Of a stretch of 39,079 nucleotides of DNA, positions 26,099-37,652 are shown piece by piece (positions within the stretch are counted from its first letter, which is position 1; each line of letters starts with the position of its first letter). The DNA comes from a virus (taxonomy: Duplodnaviria; Heunggongvirae; Uroviricota; Caudoviricetes). The translations under genes were made by a program, and so were the position numbers. The notes below the pieces were generated by a model. That model was not told where the DNA came from and ran no database searches. It was given only the letters and a program-made list of their open reading frames with translations. The stretch lies in the IMG/VR virus record IMGVR_UViG_2609459839_000001. One strand, written 5' to 3'.

Positions 26099-26173
<75 letters not shown>

Positions 26174-26176
26174 ATA

Positions 26177-26252
<76 letters not shown>

Positions 26253-26254
26253 AC

Positions 26255-26331
26255 TGGACCGCCACCGGGGACTCGAACCTCGCACACTCAACTTAAAGGG
26301 TTGACGCTCTTTCCTGATGAGCCAGTGGCGG
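26255..26331 (-). tRNA. aberrant tRNA-like gene, anticodon UUU (Lys) if functional; possible pseudo-tRNA
   Basis: CCGCCAC acceptor with CCA end and TTCGAGT T-loop, but C at position 33, atypical D-loop, and an A-C mismatch in T-stem. Confidence 0.45.
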
Positions 26332-26332
26332 T

Positions 26333-26408
26333 TGGTGGCCCTTGCTGGATTTGAACCAGCGACCTGGCGATTATGAGTCGCTCGCTCTCACCACTGAGCT
26401 AAAGGGCC
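26333..26408 (-). tRNA. tRNA with anticodon CAU (Met or Ile2/lysidine type, ileX/ileZ-like)
   Basis: GGCCCTT acceptor, anticodon loop CTCATAA, TTCAAAT T-loop, CCA end; resembles E. coli ileX. Confidence 0.75.
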
Positions 26409-28727: not shown

Positions 28728-29000
28728 TTACCTCCAGATGCGTTGCTGGAATGTGCGGGACGGACGCGGTGGGCGTTCGGAATAAGGGAGCCTGACAGAA
28801 ATTATCCAGTGTCGGAAGTCAGGGCCGAGGTCTTTCTGAAAGTCGTACCCACGCCTGCGGTAGTTCTGAATCAGCCATTCGGCCTGTTCTTCAGTGCATG
28901 GGGCATGCTGGTACCAGTCATATTTGAATGTATGAGAACGCCGCCCGTGCCAGCTGGCAAGGTCGGTATCAGAATTGTGATGTTTGGTATTGTGCGCCAT
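28728..29000 (-). CDS. hypothetical nin-region protein
   Basis: 90 aa ORF with ATG, stop 1 nt before DUF968 start. Confidence 0.5.
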   Translation of the reverse strand: MAHNTKHHNSDTDLASWHGRRSHTFKYDWYQHAPCTEEQAEWLIQNYRRRGYDFQKDLGPDFRHWIISVRLPYSERPPRPSRTFQQRIWR

Positions 29001-29071: not shown

Positions 29072-29096
29072 AAACAAAAAACCCGCCGAAGCGGGT
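29072..29096 (-). terminator. rho-independent terminator closing the two-gene cargo cassette
   Basis: ACCCGC cgaa GCGGGT followed on minus strand by TTTTTTGTTTT; overlaps stop of 29102-30223. Confidence 0.6.
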
Positions 29097-29101
29097 TATG
29101 C

Positions 29102-30223
29102 CTAGTGAATTTTGCCTCTAAGAGTTCGGTAAGATTGTAGTGAAACAACATCACCACTTCCTGGCAGTTCATGAACCGCAGGAAGATCATCTCCTACTAA
29201 CTCATAAAAAATGTCCACTTCTATATCCATTTCATCAGCTATACGCTGTGGGTCGTATCCTAACTCTTCAAATAAAAACGATAAAGCCCGACGGAATAAC
29301 TCAGGACGCTCATGAGGGATTAGATAATCTTCTTTTTCATCAATAGCTTCCCCTTTCCGTTTCAACCCCATAAATGCAGTTCTGTACTGCTCATCAGTCA
29401 AAAGTCCTAATTGATGAGCCCTGTAAACAATGGCAGCCTTACTTACTTTCCATGTCAACTTAAATTGGCTTAGTCCCTGCCAATTTATCCTCCCCCCCAC
29501 AGGTCTTGGAAAATATTTCGCCATCGACGTTCTGGGAAGCAACAGAGCAGAGGCAAAACGGTTTGCCTGGGATTCAGTTAATCTATCCCCAGTAGAAATT
29601 CCTTCATGAAGAATCAAATGGGCAACCTCATGAGCAATATCAAAGCGTTGCCTACAAGGTGAATTTTTAGCTGTATTTCGAACAATAAAAGGCCTTCGTA
29701 GAGGAACAGACAGTGCATCTACTTCATCCGAAACGGAGTCAAATGAAGTAACAAACGCCCCAAGTTTCTCGGCAAGGCGAGTCATATTTTCAATTGGGCC
29801 AAAGCCTAAGCCCCACTCAATACGACATTTTTCTGCCGCTCGCTCGATATCTTCTTGTGTATGGACACGAAATTCAGGAAATCGAACAGGTGACAAATTA
29901 AGGTTATCTTCAAATACATCAATAAAACGACGATAAAACTCAGCCTTAGCGAGTGTTGATAGCTTCGTTGACATCCTTGTCGAGGCGCGTTTACGAAAAT
30001 GTACAATCTCTTCATTAACAGGAGAATGTTCCTGCCCTTCGAAAAAGGCGGGCTTCACGCGCAAAACCTCGGCTAATTTATTTATAAGCTCTGGGGATGG
30101 AGTAGCTGAACCAGACTCCAGTCGCTGTACATACTGGCGTGTTTTTTCAACCTTCTCAGCAACCTGCTCCAGAGATAGCTCGTGATACAGACGAGCAAGT
30201 CTTAAATTAGTACCGTTAAACAC
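29102..30223 (-). CDS. XRE-family HTH fused to M78 (ImmA/IrrE, COG2856) zinc metallopeptidase
   Basis: 373 aa; N-terminal HTH (LSLEQVAEKVEKTRQYVQRLESG), HEXXH motif HEVAHLILH; GTG start 10 nt after upstream gene stop. Confidence 0.8.
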   Translation of the reverse strand: MFNGTNLRLARLYHELSLEQVAEKVEKTRQYVQRLESGSATPSPELINKLAEVLRVKPAFFEGQEHSPVNEEIVHFRKRASTRMSTKLSTLAKAEFYRRFIDVFEDNLNLSPVRFPEFRVHTQEDIERAAEKCRIEWGLGFGPIENMTRLAEKLGAFVTSFDSVSDEVDALSVPLRRPFIVRNTAKNSPCRQRFDIAHEVAHLILHEGISTGDRLTESQANRFASALLLPRTSMAKYFPRPVGGRINWQGLSQFKLTWKVSKAAIVYRAHQLGLLTDEQYRTAFMGLKRKGEAIDEKEDYLIPHERPELFRRALSFLFEELGYDPQRIADEMDIEVDIFYELVGDDLPAVHELPGSGDVVSLQSYRTLRGKIH

Positions 30224-30233
30224 ATTTCACCCA

Positions 30234-30827
30234 CTATTTGCTATTTTGTTTCTTTTCCTTCTCAGTCTTAGACGCACTGATAGGTTCTAGTTCGATAGGT
30301 ACCGGTGCTGGAGGTACATCATCGACAGAGTTCAGCATAACAACACGGTCCGCACCATATGTCCAAGTTGACACGATCTCACCAAACACGTTATAGCCAT
30401 TAAAAATGACTCTACCACCCTCGCCTTCAAATTCAGGCTTTTCAACCACAAAGCGATGCATAGTTGGAGTAGTCTCCTCTGACTCAAAGAGTCGATCAGC
30501 ATCATTTCTTTTGAAAAAACCGCGTTTCTTGGGGTTATCTGCGTCATCAGTAAAGAAACGAATAGGGACATTCCCAATTGAAAACGTAAGATCCATGCCA
30601 GGATTAAGTAGTCTTAACCAGTCATATGTCTTTCGTACGCACATTTGTAGCAACGCCTGCCGCTGACGCCCAAATGTACAACCACCACGAGTGTAATTAT
30701 CATCATAGGGCGATGACAATAACTCATGAGTAATATCCTGTATCCTGAGCAACTCCTCAGCTATAATGGTTAAACGCTCCTCTGTTAACTCAGGAAAGAA
30801 CTCCCAAGGGAATGGATGGTTCTGCAT
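30234..30827 (-). CDS. hypothetical protein (197 aa), first gene of cargo cassette
   Basis: ATG 30827 preceded by GGAGAAG; no recognisable motif. Confidence 0.6.
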   Translation of the reverse strand: MQNHPFPWEFFPELTEERLTIIAEELLRIQDITHELLSSPYDDNYTRGGCTFGRQRQALLQMCVRKTYDWLRLLNPGMDLTFSIGNVPIRFFTDDADNPKKRGFFKRNDADRLFESEETTPTMHRFVVEKPEFEGEGGRVIFNGYNVFGEIVSTWTYGADRVVMLNSVDDVPPAPVPIELEPISASKTEKEKKQNSK

Positions 30828-30862
30828 AGACACTTCTCCGCCTAATCCGTGCAAAAAACGAC

Positions 30863-30909
30863 TTTTGTCAACCAAGATATTGGTGCATATTCATAATTTT
30901 GTCAACCAA
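30863..30909 (-). promoter_or_regulatory. promoter-like region with two direct copies of TTGGTTGACAAAA (each containing TTGACA)
   Basis: Copies at 30863-30875 and 30897-30909 (plus-strand TTTTGTCAACCAA); distal TTGACA-17 nt-CAATAT. Confidence 0.35.
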
Positions 30910-30910
30910 T

Positions 30911-30931
30911 AAAAAACCCGCCGAAGCGGGT
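30911..30931 (-). terminator. rho-independent terminator, identical hairpin to that at 29081-29096
   Basis: ACCCGC cgaa GCGGGT followed on minus strand by TTTTTTATTGG. Confidence 0.55.
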
Positions 30932-31277
30932 TAAGTGCGGGTGCGTTGAGGATGCCTGACACATCAGAGGTGGCGAGGGATTTCTCCCTCGCCTGGTCTC
31001 TTACTCCTCAGGTTCGTAAGCTGTGAAGACAGCGACCTCCGTCTGGCCGGTTCGGATTCGTACCTCGCAGAGGTCTTTCCTCGTTATCAGTACCGCAACA
31101 ATTTCGTATTCATGATTCATTTCATCTAAAACAGTTCATAAACCTAAATAAATTCAAAAAATCACAACACAAATAAATATAAATTATCTCATCCTGAAGA
31201 ACGATAGGATTATTTAGAATTAATAACAATTAATGTAACAATAATTATCAATCCAGATTATTCAAATAAAATGTCAT

Positions 31278-32324
31278 TTACCATATGGAGTTGTGAATGA
31301 ACTTTAATTCATTTTTTATTTTGTTAACAGATAAATTCACGGATGTCCTAACTCTATTCACAGTCATTGCATCTCCTGGATTTAACAACTCTAATGGTTT
31401 AGACTTAGCACTTGACATTCTGCCACTACCCAGAAAATCATCAAGAATCACAATGTGATTATTAGGATCATCTGTTGTAAAATTACTAATATTTTGTCGA
31501 ATTACCTCTCTTACAGCTTCGATGTACATTTTTGTCTGTTGATTTGGTTTATTCCTTGCTCCTGCCACTGTTGACCATCCGCAATGGGTAATAACCACCA
31601 TCTGAATTTTTGGTGTATGGCCATCAGACGGCATTATCTTTCTAAATTCTGATGTTGGTTTAGTCAGAGTATCAATAAGTAATCTTAATGAATTAATCGA
31701 TTGCTGATCTGTCCTCACTGGAACTATTAAAGCATCTGTTGCATGCCAAGATAAATGCGTCGCTCCAGAGAAAAAAGGTGATGTATCAATTAACGCTTTT
31801 GTAGTACCAGTTTCAACCATTTCTCTGGCTATTTCTTTCTTCAGAGAAAAAAGAATTGTATCAATAACAACCTGCTGAGTAGCCCCAGAAATTGTTCTGG
31901 CTTGAGCCAGAGCATTCGCCATTTGCGTAGGTAGAAGATAAAGTTGACTATCAGATTGAATAAAATAGTTATTCTTGCCCGCAAACCAAGCATTAGTTGA
32001 TGATACTAGCTTTGCAGCACGCGTTGCAAATCCAAGCCCTGGAACAAAATAAGGCATTAAGAGGTCATTTGCAGTTGTGCTAGACGAAGATGCATAATTA
32101 TTGTCAAAAAAATATGATAAATTTCCTTGCGGGCACGTATCCACGATTAATGCGTTATCCGCCAAATATGACAGATTAAAAGTTAAAGATGTCTTACCAA
32201 TGCCTCCCCGTAAATTACATACTGTATATTTATCATATTTCGGCAAATTAAGACTTCTTACATTACCGTCAGCAACTTCGAATTGACGCTCTATCAGAGC
32301 ATTAACATTTGATTCACTAGTCAT
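31278..32324 (-). CDS. ParA/MinD-like P-loop ATPase in AT-rich cargo segment
   Basis: 348 aa; deviant Walker A NLRGGIGKTS (Arg where ParA/MinD have the signature Lys), DTCPQGN motif; region visibly AT-rich. Confidence 0.7.
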   Translation of the reverse strand: MTSESNVNALIERQFEVADGNVRSLNLPKYDKYTVCNLRGGIGKTSLTFNLSYLADNALIVDTCPQGNLSYFFDNNYASSSSTTANDLLMPYFVPGLGFATRAAKLVSSTNAWFAGKNNYFIQSDSQLYLLPTQMANALAQARTISGATQQVVIDTILFSLKKEIAREMVETGTTKALIDTSPFFSGATHLSWHATDALIVPVRTDQQSINSLRLLIDTLTKPTSEFRKIMPSDGHTPKIQMVVITHCGWSTVAGARNKPNQQTKMYIEAVREVIRQNISNFTTDDPNNHIVILDDFLGSGRMSSAKSKPLELLNPGDAMTVNRVRTSVNLSVNKIKNELKFIHNSIW

Positions 32325-37594: not shown

Positions 37595-37652
37595 TTTCTG
37601 GTGGCGTTTGGCGGTATCAGTTTTACTCCGTGACTGCTCTGCCGCCCTTTTT
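37595..37652 (+). ncRNA. dicF: DicF small RNA
   Basis: TTTCTGGTGGCGTTTGGCGGTATCAGTTTTACTCCGTGACTGCTCTGCCGCCCTTTTT matches my recollection of E. coli DicF with one mismatch; ends in hairpin + U-tract. Confidence 0.8.

Follow-up and report, generated by a model that had tools for sequence, protein, structure and literature searches.

The rmrT and rmrA genes and their products

Two co-oriented genes, rmrT and rmrA, were found on the minus strand within a window of 39,079 nucleotides (the whole stretch of viral DNA that was analysed). The genes are preceded by a putative promoter, and the resulting cassette is bracketed by two copies of a direct repeat (Table 1). The original prediction of a co-oriented pair, lower in GC than the phage core, was confirmed: both genes are read from the same strand, 10 nt apart, and the GC content is 0.429 for the cassette versus 0.526 for the phage. 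The tight spacing is conserved, with gaps of approximately 10–20 nt in relatives. Cassette-identical DNA (100%) is present in UMNF18, where both coding sequences are annotated likewise by RefSeq, as WP_000481765.1 (RmrA) and WP_001179381.1 (RmrT).

Table 1. Features of the rmrTA cassette and its flanks (positions are those of the window)
Feature	Position	Strand	Basis or remarks
Downstream 23-bp direct repeat; predicted rmrTA operon terminator	29076-29098	-	stem-loop 29080-29097; U-tract to about 29070
rmrA, 373 aa, GTG start	29102-30223	-	Pfam, PADLOC; RefSeq WP_000481765.1
10-nt spacer, rmrT stop codon to rmrA GTG	30224-30233	-	read from sequence
rmrT, 197 aa, ATG start	30234-30827	-	RefSeq WP_001179381.1 (identical DNA); PADLOC; PHROG 5786
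Shine-Dalgarno GGAG, 8 nt upstream of rmrT ATG	30836-30839	-	read from sequence
Operator-like box O2, TTGACAAAAGTCGTTTTTTGCAC	30849-30871	-	overlaps predicted transcription start
Putative promoter with box O1	30877-30905	-	-35 TTGACA 30905-30900; 17-nt spacer; -10 CAATAT 30882-30877
Operator-like box O1, TTGACAAAATTATGAATATGCAC	30905-30883	-	spans -35 up to -10
Upstream 23-bp direct repeat; putative original hok terminator	30911-30933	-	stem-loop 30915-30932
hok/gef remnant without N-terminus	31001-31102	-	RefSeq annotation of near-identical DNA; compared with intact hokD

RmrA is composed of an XRE helix-turn-helix domain (approximately residues 4–61), an M78 zinc-peptidase domain (approximately residues 151–269) and a C-terminal third that is variable. 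Both domains, anticipated together with a HEVAH motif in the original prediction, were matched in Pfam (HTH_3, E 1.5e-12; Peptidase_M78, E 8.4e-17), and HEVAH was located at residues 198–202. Residues H198, E199, H202, H206 and E217 were invariant in 33 RmrA homologues; since these metal-binding and catalytic residues of the peptidase do not vary, catalysis by RmrA probably matters. The protein was matched by the PADLOC RmrA model PDLC03943 (E 4.3e-201, positions 1–368 of 370) and also by the PADLOC models for capP (E 2.8e-17) and capH (E 5e-10). The match to the NCBIfam model of the spr1629-family repressor/antitoxin (174 bits, E 4e-51) was below the curated cutoff, and RmrA is therefore not an equivalog of that family.

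The 197-aa product of rmrT, described beforehand as devoid of any recognisable motif, gave no match in Pfam or NCBIfam, and a Pfam scan of 38 distant relatives likewise gave none. It was matched by the PADLOC RmrT model PDLC03929 (E 5.5e-93, positions 1–197 of 198) and by PHROG 5786. With a pI of 5.0, a GRAVY of -0.58 and a maximal 19-residue Kyte-Doolittle hydropathy of 0.82, the protein has no transmembrane segment; its AlphaFold2 model (mean pLDDT 82.6) is a soluble alpha/beta domain, and RmrT is predicted to be a soluble, acidic alpha/beta toxin. A sequence-profile search of the PDB with RmrT gave no match even at E 10, and no confident structural neighbour was found. A profile search of 1.84 billion representatives returned 428 clusters, nearly all of them stand-alone proteins of about 200 aa, and no informative domain fusion of an RmrT relative was found among these. 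The most conserved motif in the homologue alignment was DDNYTR (residues 42–47), which includes T46; T46S is the toxin mutation that suppresses the essentiality of clpP in E. coli E101 (bioRxiv 10.1101/2020.05.25.114553). A further allele, WP_001179382.1, differs from the window toxin by one residue (E17V). A TTG start for rmrT at 30875 (213 aa) was rejected as unlikely, because homologues begin at the ATG and the extension overlaps both the promoter and O2.

The cassette had been expected to carry its own promoter-like TTGACA repeats, and TTTTGTCAACCAA is indeed present twice, at 30863–30875 and 30897–30909. Two operator-like boxes (GTTGACAAA-N10-TGCA) were found over the promoter in 31/31 loci, with the consensus gGTTGACAAA-N10-TGCAc and the members of the pair 31–34 bp apart; the remaining flanks of the 31 loci differ. 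The box pattern occurs only twice in the 39-kb window (0.03 expected). The cassette promoter was missed by a generic promoter scan, because its -10 matches at only 3/6 positions, and was assigned from comparative conservation. The conserved two-box promoter, as predicted from this comparison, is a newly found detail, as are the soluble and acidic character of RmrT with no confident structural neighbour, the origin of the bracketing hairpin and the further cassettes at its site (below).

Terminator hairpins and the hok site

The hairpin ACCCGCCGAAGCGGGT was found at 29081–29096 and 30916–30931. Both copies, which had been recognised from the outset as identical and as bearing U-tracts, lie inside an exact 23-nt direct repeat (AAAAAACCCGCCGAAGCGGGTTA) whose copies are spaced 1835 bp. 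Elsewhere in the 39-kb window the 14-nt core of the hairpin does not recur (two occurrences, with 0.02 expected by chance). In terminator scoring, both hairpins were called as intrinsic terminators for the minus strand, on which the genes lie, and not for the plus strand; in each, a UUCG loop closes a 7-bp stem and a U-tract is present, and folding was predicted to yield -13.8 and -13.5 kcal/mol. The upstream repeat is predicted to insulate the cassette from upstream transcription, and the downstream terminator would stop read-through to a 90-aa ORF, DUF968, rusA and Q. The terminators would also insulate an operon expressed in the lysogen from the neighbouring Q antiterminator gene.

An empty site was found in strain CREC-2, with a single hairpin copy beside hokD and both flanks continuous; the phage flank beyond the downstream repeat of the window is the same as in this empty site. 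The hok/gef remnant (Table 1) marks the original locus whose terminator received the cassette. As judged from this comparison, the bracketing hairpin is the hok terminator, duplicated on insertion of the cassette, and the insertion likely took place by short-homology recombination. The terminator that belongs to the cassette itself shares this hairpin sequence, in keeping with the hairpins that follow rmrA in relatives (below). A transposon-type target-site duplication or an integron-like attC was not adopted as the origin of the repeat, because no transposase or integrase is present in any cassette and the hairpin is a plain terminator.

The two hairpins might also be independent terminators that are alike by coincidence, or an assembly artefact, and would then be silent on how the cassette arrived. 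GC-rich stems with UUCG loops are a common terminator design, and relatives of the cassette that lie in unrelated contexts also bear terminators of this kind: in one of them, 77% identical, the same hairpin comes directly after rmrA, and similar hairpins follow rmrA in the Yersinia and Klebsiella loci. However, the repeat is identical at 23/23 nt, including the A-run and two bases past the stem; 23 complete genomes, independent of one another, share the hairpin-bracketed structure; the hairpin is single in the empty site; and four other cassettes at the hok site are bracketed alike. Coincidence or artefact was thus considered very improbable, and duplication of the hok terminator was retained as the origin of the repeat.

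At least four other hairpin-bracketed cassettes were found at the same site in related prophages; they carry a second RosmerTA subtype, Fic/Doc, a split pair of helix-turn-helix and M78 peptidase proteins, and a lipoprotein-like gene. No specific account of a hotspot adjacent to hok emerged from a search of the literature. Self-contained toxin–antitoxin (TA) and defence cassettes may be inserted and exchanged among lambdoid prophages through the hok terminator hairpin (A-run plus CCCGCCGAAGCGGG), which would then act as a portable site of recombination, about 20 bp long, and the recombination at the hairpin may be catalysed by the phage RecET or Red short-homology systems. The cassette resembles lambdoid morons in its autonomous promoter and terminator, its deviant GC and its location between conserved genes of the nin region. 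It differs from them in that the terminator is duplicated as a flanking direct repeat and that the same point is reused by several cassettes. Few genomes carry the cassette (23 of 5426 complete E. coli genomes), and it was absent from isolated-phage records; neither its rarity nor this absence has any bearing on function.

Assignment to RosmerTA and relation to known systems

RosmerTA systems consist of an upstream, co-oriented toxin gene of an RmrT family and of RmrA, a protein of approximately 360–400 aa with an XRE helix-turn-helix, an M78 (ImmA/IrrE) zinc peptidase and a HEXXH motif. The window carries an RmrT match 10 nt upstream of a gene for a protein with this RmrA architecture, and the pair was assigned by PADLOC to RmrT plus RmrA, i.e., to RosmerTA. 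The locus was accordingly read, with a probability of about 0.8, as a toxin–antitoxin and defence operon that belongs to RosmerTA and, within it, to the Vmi480/Vmi470 subtype; it would form a self-contained unit of cargo, located in the nin region, within a lambdoid E. coli prophage of the Qin/Rac-like kind. The genomic neighbourhood of the 197-aa homologues, singled out for checking in the original prediction, was surveyed: these genes were not found in core phage modules, which would have counted against that prediction, were followed directly by an rmrA gene in 31/32 genome loci (Gamma- and Betaproteobacteria), and were also plasmid-borne. The expectation of an insulated, lysogen-expressed module of the TA, abortive-infection or defence type with an HTH-COG2856 partner is supported by the PADLOC assignment and by published work, in which the identical RmrA, paired with a toxin allele that is nearly the same, behaves as part of a TA-like module in a natural lysogen and in K-12. 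The module is detected by standard defence-finding HMM libraries and RmrA is already in the literature, so that the module itself is ordinary; it was catalogued and partly characterised before and is not new.

In E. coli E101 and TA054, the prophage-borne pair E101_02645/E101_02644 has the same gene order, the same antitoxin accession (WP_000481765.1) and a near-identical 197-aa toxin allele (WP_001179380.1), told apart by accession from the window toxin (WP_001179381.1). This pair makes clpP essential (Rousset et al., bioRxiv 10.1101/2020.05.25.114553; Nat Microbiol 2021). Loss of the prophage suppresses the essentiality, and the pair reproduces it when moved to K-12 (bioRxiv 10.1101/2020.05.25.114553); the toxin allele in this published work on ClpP was that of E101, not that of the window. 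In Vibrio mimicus, Vmi480 is lethal alone and Vmi470 is its antidote; both are encoded by the genomic island MGIVmi1 (Luo et al. 2015, PMC4671572). There, as in the window, the toxin gene (product about 198 aa) precedes, across a short spacer, the gene for a helix-turn-helix and zinc-peptidase antitoxin (about 362 aa), and the two genes have a promoter of their own; they lie, however, on a mobilisable genomic island rather than in a prophage. The E101 pair shares 33% and 42% identity with Vmi480/Vmi470 (figures from Rousset et al., bioRxiv 10.1101/2020.05.25.114553).

The verified RosmerTA system of E. coli OLC-716 defends against phages and does not tolerate deletion of rmrA (Millman et al. 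2022), and that of Gordonia phage Kita also defends against phages (Ernits et al.). Anti-phage activity of RosmerTA is demonstrated only for systems with toxins unrelated to this subtype. The toxin gene comes first in both OLC-716 and the window, and the two RmrA proteins are homologous (31% identity over 311 residues, E 2e-38), whereas the OLC-716 RmrT (239 aa, PADLOC PDLC03935) is unrelated to that of the window; a distant kinship of the two toxins was rejected (BLASTP not significant; hhalign probability 3.4%). The RmrT of phage Kita is membrane-depolarising, whereas the window RmrT, by its hydropathy and soluble model, has no membrane segment.

A requirement for Clp was also described for RipA/RipB (Spr1630/Spr1629) of Streptococcus pneumoniae, in which the toxin makes ClpX essential and excess antitoxin lifts the requirement (Maziero et al. 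2025, PMC12795458), and by Tn-seq of Pectobacteriaceae for another Rosmer system, dependent on ClpX (PMC13566846). RipA/RipB is a Rosmer-family pair whose antitoxin family model is the one matched by the window RmrA below its cutoff; it differs in its Gram-positive host and in that RipA targets the DnaN sliding clamp, to which nothing ties the window RmrT. A need for ClpX/ClpP to keep the toxin silent is an emerging shared property of Rosmer systems (E101, S. pneumoniae RipAB and Pectobacteriaceae). CapH/CapP (CBASS) and ImmR/ImmA (ICEBs1) likewise combine an XRE helix-turn-helix repressor with an M78 zinc peptidase; these are separate proteins, however, in which the peptidase cleaves the repressor and the downstream operon is induced, whereas RmrA is a single fusion that is also an antitoxin.

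In classical type II TA systems the antitoxin gene comes first and the antitoxin is small, labile and degraded by Lon/Clp; losing the protease therefore tips the balance towards the antitoxin. This class was rejected for the window, where the toxin gene leads and the antitoxin, of 373 aa, is an enzyme fusion; it is further contradicted by the published depletion of ClpP, which renders the toxin active, not silenced (bioRxiv 10.1101/2020.05.25.114553).

Proposed mode of action and rival functions

A promoter with a strong -35 and a weak -10 would produce one transcript, rmrT followed by rmrA, ending at the terminator of the cassette. RmrA is probably the autorepressor of the operon: its N-terminal helix-turn-helix would bind O1 (at the promoter) and O2 (at the transcription start), as the conservation of the boxes suggests. 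RmrA is also the antitoxin of rmrTA and would neutralise RmrT, as was shown for the homologous Vmi470/Vmi480; that other RosmerTA systems cannot do without rmrA implies the same. Neutralisation would require host ClpXP, and depletion of ClpP would free the toxicity of RmrT, in keeping with the experiment made with the identical RmrA and a near-identical RmrT allele. Cleavage or turnover of RmrT with the help of ClpX is one possible mode; another is self-cleavage set off by a signal, as in CapP/CapH and ImmA/ImmR. If the analogy to other RosmerTA systems holds, a phage may upset the balance, whereupon free RmrT would halt or kill the cell and the infection would abort; phage defence by this RmrT subtype is thus presumed from the same analogy. 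RmrT of this subtype may have a new fold and act as a soluble toxin whose release ClpXP controls; the module could then serve as a guard, triggered by phage interference with proteolysis by host ClpXP. That this should hold jointly with the role of the hok hairpin as a portable recombination site was considered doubtful.

A role solely in addiction or stabilisation, with killing of cells that lose the prophage or the segment and no anti-phage function, was considered improbable. The direct experimental data on this subtype all concern toxicity and neutralisation, the adjacent locus hok/sok is a classic post-segregational killer, and homologues are found on plasmids and on a mobilisable genomic island. 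However, protection against phages is known from other RosmerTA systems whose RmrA shares this architecture, the insertion site also gathers other cassettes of TA or defence type, and stabilisation and defence can coexist. A further alternative, in which RmrA acts like ImmA as an anti-repressor or regulates prophage induction and the 197-aa protein is an accessory rather than a toxin, was given almost no weight. RmrA does share its domains with the regulatory pairs ImmR/ImmA, CapH/CapP and IrrE/DdrO and does match capP and capH in PADLOC, but the cassette lies far from the immunity region (approximately 34.8–35.8 kb, dicB and DicF), this type of cassette is found outside prophages with the same partner, and the upstream gene is genetically the toxic component, the published toxicity data contradicting a regulator.

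Read as a RosmerTA operon, the cassette is a convenient E. coli model for the action of a soluble RmrT on the cell and for the question of why an antitoxin with a protease domain needs ClpXP, and its conserved two-box promoter offers a concrete handle on the autoregulation of rmrTA. The repeated use of the hok terminator suggests a simple route by which prophages may swap small defence or addiction cassettes; if confirmed, reuse of the hok site would help in the systematic location of such cargo.

Identity of the cassette and its published relatives

The two co-oriented genes of the original prediction, 10 nt apart, were recovered as the same open reading frames, and both coding sequences are likewise annotated by RefSeq on identical DNA (see table). 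The lower GC content noted originally was borne out (0.429 for the cassette versus 0.526 for the surrounding phage), and the original description held on all points. Searches against Pfam returned HTH_3 and Peptidase_M78 for the 373-aa protein and no match for the 197-aa protein. With PADLOC, the 197-aa protein was identified as RmrT (model PDLC03929, E 5.5e-93, positions 1-197 of 198) and the 373-aa protein as RmrA (model PDLC03943, E 4.3e-201, full-length match). Since the pair of RmrT and RmrA defines the RosmerTA system, the cassette was assigned to RosmerTA, which supports the earlier reading as a toxin-antitoxin-like or defence-type module. RmrT fell into phrog_5786 (unknown function) and RmrA into phrog_2439 (transcriptional regulator) of PHROGs; in NCBIfam, RmrA was related to the spr1629-family repressor/antitoxin model, with a score under the curated cutoff. 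DNA of strain UMNF18 is 100% identical to the cassette (RefSeq WP_001179381.1 for RmrT and WP_000481765.1 for RmrA).

Features of the window, with positions and strand
Feature	Position	Strand	Description
90-aa ORF	28728-29000		start 76 nt from the hairpin repeat
23-nt repeat, copy 1	29076-29098		AAAAAACCCGCCGAAGCGGGTTA
Hairpin, copy 1	29081-29096		ACCCGCCGAAGCGGGT
rmrA ORF	29102-30223	minus	373 aa, GTG start, 10 nt after rmrT stop codon
rmrT ORF	30234-30827	minus	197 aa, ATG start, GGAG 8 nt upstream
O2 box	30871-30849	minus	consensus pattern
O1 box	30905-30883	minus	consensus pattern
23-nt repeat, copy 2	30911-30933		AAAAAACCCGCCGAAGCGGGTTA
Hairpin, copy 2	30916-30931		ACCCGCCGAAGCGGGT
hok remnant	31001-31102		cut at 5' end
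AT-rich segment	31100-32800		GC 0.37
ParA-like ORF	31278-32324	minus	348 aa
Promoter-like site	32383-32355		strong
tRNA genes	26099-26408	minus	four genes
DicF	37596-37647		Rfam RF00039, 76 bits

Because an identical RmrA and homologous pairs are described in published work, the cassette is an already known and partly characterised toxin-antitoxin pair, its exact antitoxin being in the literature. RmrA WP_000481765.1 is E101_02644 of Rousset et al. (bioRxiv 10.1101/2020.05.25.114553). In the natural isolate E101, the prophage module was the sole reason for clpP essentiality; suppression came from loss of the prophage or from T46S in the gene upstream, E101_02645 (WP_001179380.1), silencing of which relieved toxicity, and transfer of the pair to K-12 rendered clpP essential, except with the T46S allele (Rousset et al., bioRxiv 10.1101/2020.05.25.114553). 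The RmrA accession is common to E101 and the window, whereas the toxin accessions differ (WP_001179380.1 versus WP_001179381.1). The E101 pair is 33% and 42% identical to Vmi480/Vmi470 of Vibrio mimicus (Rousset et al.), a lethal toxin and its antidote (Luo et al., PMC4671572). In the pneumococcus, it is the Rosmer pair RipAB that renders ClpX essential; DnaN is the target of RipA, and with an excess of RipB the cell can dispense with ClpX (Maziero et al., PMC12795458). By Tn-seq in 2026, clpX was essential among Pectobacteriaceae only in RosmerTA carriers (PMC13566846).

RosmerTA was named by Millman et al.; phage defence was verified for the system of E. coli OLC-716, in which an rmrA deletion was not obtainable (Millman et al.). 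The OLC-716 RmrA is homologous to that of the window (31% identity, E 2e-38), whereas its toxin is unrelated to the window RmrT by BLASTP, PADLOC model and hhalign (probability 3.4%). For the RmrT subtype of the window, a putative role in phage defence is suggested by family membership.

Toxin, antitoxin and operator-like boxes

Homologues of RmrT numbered 80 in a word-indexed search, and an exhaustive profile search gave 428 clusters of nearly always stand-alone proteins of ~200 aa. All 38 distant members sampled matched the same PADLOC model alone, and none matched a Pfam family. Residues D42, Y45, R54, R90, F92, D94, D95, P99, D111, L113, R125, F126, E129 and W155, plus P7 and L19, are invariant in the alignment of close relatives; in the wide family only P7, L19, D42 and W70 are nearly invariant. 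The suppressor site T46, within the DDNYTR motif, is present in the window RmrT. The protein is acidic and soluble (pI 5.0, GRAVY -0.58) with no hydrophobic segment, and is therefore unlike the toxin of the Gordonia phage Kita RosmerTA, a verified defence system whose toxin depolarises the membrane (Ernits et al.). The AlphaFold2 model of RmrT, built from 46 sequences, was confident (mean pLDDT 82.6) and predicts two long helices, then a six-stranded sheet and a disordered tail.

In 33 aligned RmrA homologues, H198, E199, H202, H206 and E217 are invariant, which indicates that the peptidase active site is under selection; the last third of the protein is its least conserved portion. In 31 of 32 loci, rmrT and rmrA are direct neighbours. 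Two direct copies of a box with the consensus gGTTGACAAA-N10-TGCAc, 31-34 bp apart, lie 5' of rmrT in all of 31 loci from Gamma- and Betaproteobacteria, the sequence farther upstream varying by locus. The pattern was found within the window at O1 and O2 only (0.03 matches expected). O1 holds the -35 element TTGACA and occupies the 17-nt spacer as far as the -10 element CAATAT, and O2 covers the predicted transcription start. Judged from sequence, this is the arrangement that negative autoregulation by the HTH domain of RmrA would need. A small inverted repeat, CTGT-N7-8-ACAG, lies directly 5' of O1 in four of the compared loci (L006, L011, L013 and L032); it is conserved in one Enterobacterales sub-clade of the cassette and is missing from the window copy.

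Reuse of the hok terminator

The hairpin positions of the original prediction were exact; the true direct repeat is longer, at 23 nt, with a spacing of 1835 bp. The 14-nt hairpin core occurs at these two sites only in the 39-kb window (0.02 chance matches expected). The U-tracts seen originally hold, in that each copy is scored as an intrinsic terminator, solely on the minus (gene) strand. The stems are 7 bp long, the loops are UUCG and the predicted folding energies are -13.8 and -13.5 kcal/mol.

At the empty site of strain CREC-2, whose flanks are both the same as those of the window, a single 23-nt copy has the 90-aa ORF on one side and an intact hokD on the other; the upstream hairpin was therefore identified as the hok terminator. 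On this sequence comparison, the cassette is a 1835-bp insertion bracketed by a duplicated hok terminator. Elsewhere, in another context, a cassette of 77% identity has the same hairpin directly 3' of rmrA, and close variants accompany cassette relatives in Yersinia, Klebsiella and Enterobacter. Since the hairpin follows rmrA elsewhere too, the cassette's own terminator shares ~20 nt with that of hok. Entry by short-homology recombination may be proposed; a circular or hairpin-ended copy recombining through one crossover, for example, would give exactly the observed structure.

Scanning of viral contigs for the hok terminator gave 120 loci, of which the 87 flanked by 2.4 kb or more were classified. 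Empty sites accounted for 25/87, a rem-sized insert (slot of 445-470 bp) for ~26/87 and a 369-bp slot for 6/87; empty and rem-containing sites carry a single hairpin, with no duplicate at the rem insert. At 10/87 there was a cassette with a further hairpin copy bracketing it. Four of these are window-type RosmerTA, two are of the type of phage Tritos, and in the other four an 840-bp two-gene cassette encodes a 59-aa protein together with a Fic/Doc protein (PF02661, E 1.2e-11). The other 20/87 lacked the left anchor within 3 kb or had other slot sizes, and no second hairpin copy was found among them. One extra locus with a shorter flank held a 1347-bp two-gene cassette in which an HTH-like protein and an M78 peptidase are encoded separately. 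At the same point, Tritos carries another RosmerTA subtype between two hairpin copies (RmrA 32% identical to that of the window, toxin unrelated), and phage vB_EcoM-606R7 a lipoprotein-like gene, likewise with a hairpin copy on each side. These observations concern the window copy and the related loci L003, L037, L063, L070, L073, L107, L122, L131 and L143.

The scan and the phage loci thus show that hairpin bracketing recurs with small toxin-antitoxin-like cassettes at this point. In lambdoid prophages, the hok terminator has repeatedly served for insertion: five or more distinct small cassettes, the two RosmerTA subtypes being counted as separate kinds, are found there, each flanked by an additional copy of the A-run and hairpin. 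No description of this bracketing was found in the searchable literature.

Prophage setting and proposed mechanism

The window corresponds to an E. coli lambdoid prophage of Qin/Rac-like type, with tail, portal, terminase, lysis, replication and four tRNA genes, Q, rusA, a DUF968 gene, an immunity region, DicF and dicB. The DicF antisense sRNA, in the immunity/dicB region, confirms the Qin-like character. The tRNA genes, downstream of Q, are Gly-TCC, Thr-TGT, Lys-TTT and one with a CAT anticodon (Met per ARAGORN, Ile per RefSeq). Within the nin region, the cassette is flanked by the hok remnant and a conserved 90-aa ORF, which has no family match and always separates the cassette slot from the DUF968 (YdfU-like) gene. 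The N-terminus of hok and the mok and sok region are gone; the AT-rich segment in their place encodes, behind the strong promoter-like site, a ParA-like ATPase (PHROG ParA-like partition family, E 2.8e-30; in PADLOC, weak partial matches only, to PRTase_III-A and ShosT) and looks like a second cargo insertion.

Of 5426 complete E. coli genomes, 23 carried the cassette, in each case on the chromosome, at the same site and with at least 99.6% identity; several carriers have ETEC strain names or are of pig origin. No carrier was found in the isolated-phage records searched. Plasmids from several genera, among them Salmonella, Klebsiella and Pantoea, carry RmrT homologues as well. In E. coli 99-3165 (L038) the cassette adjoins potB within a degraded prophage whose portal and tail genes are truncated, whereas the long ORFs of the window fit tail, portal and terminase genes of full length; decayed and intact-looking prophages alike have therefore kept the cassette.

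Novel here, in an incremental way, are the conserved two-box promoter, the soluble toxin without any confident fold relative and the repeated use of the hok terminator for insertions that duplicate its hairpin. In the proposed mechanism, the rmrTA operon would be repressed by RmrA, which also neutralises RmrT in a manner needing ClpXP; phage interference would be expected to free RmrT, so that infection aborts (for the subtype of the window, by analogy). The flanking terminators are likely to be functional, protecting the operon from upstream transcription and stopping a lysogen-expressed transcript from running into rusA and Q, where read-through would risk switching on the late genes.
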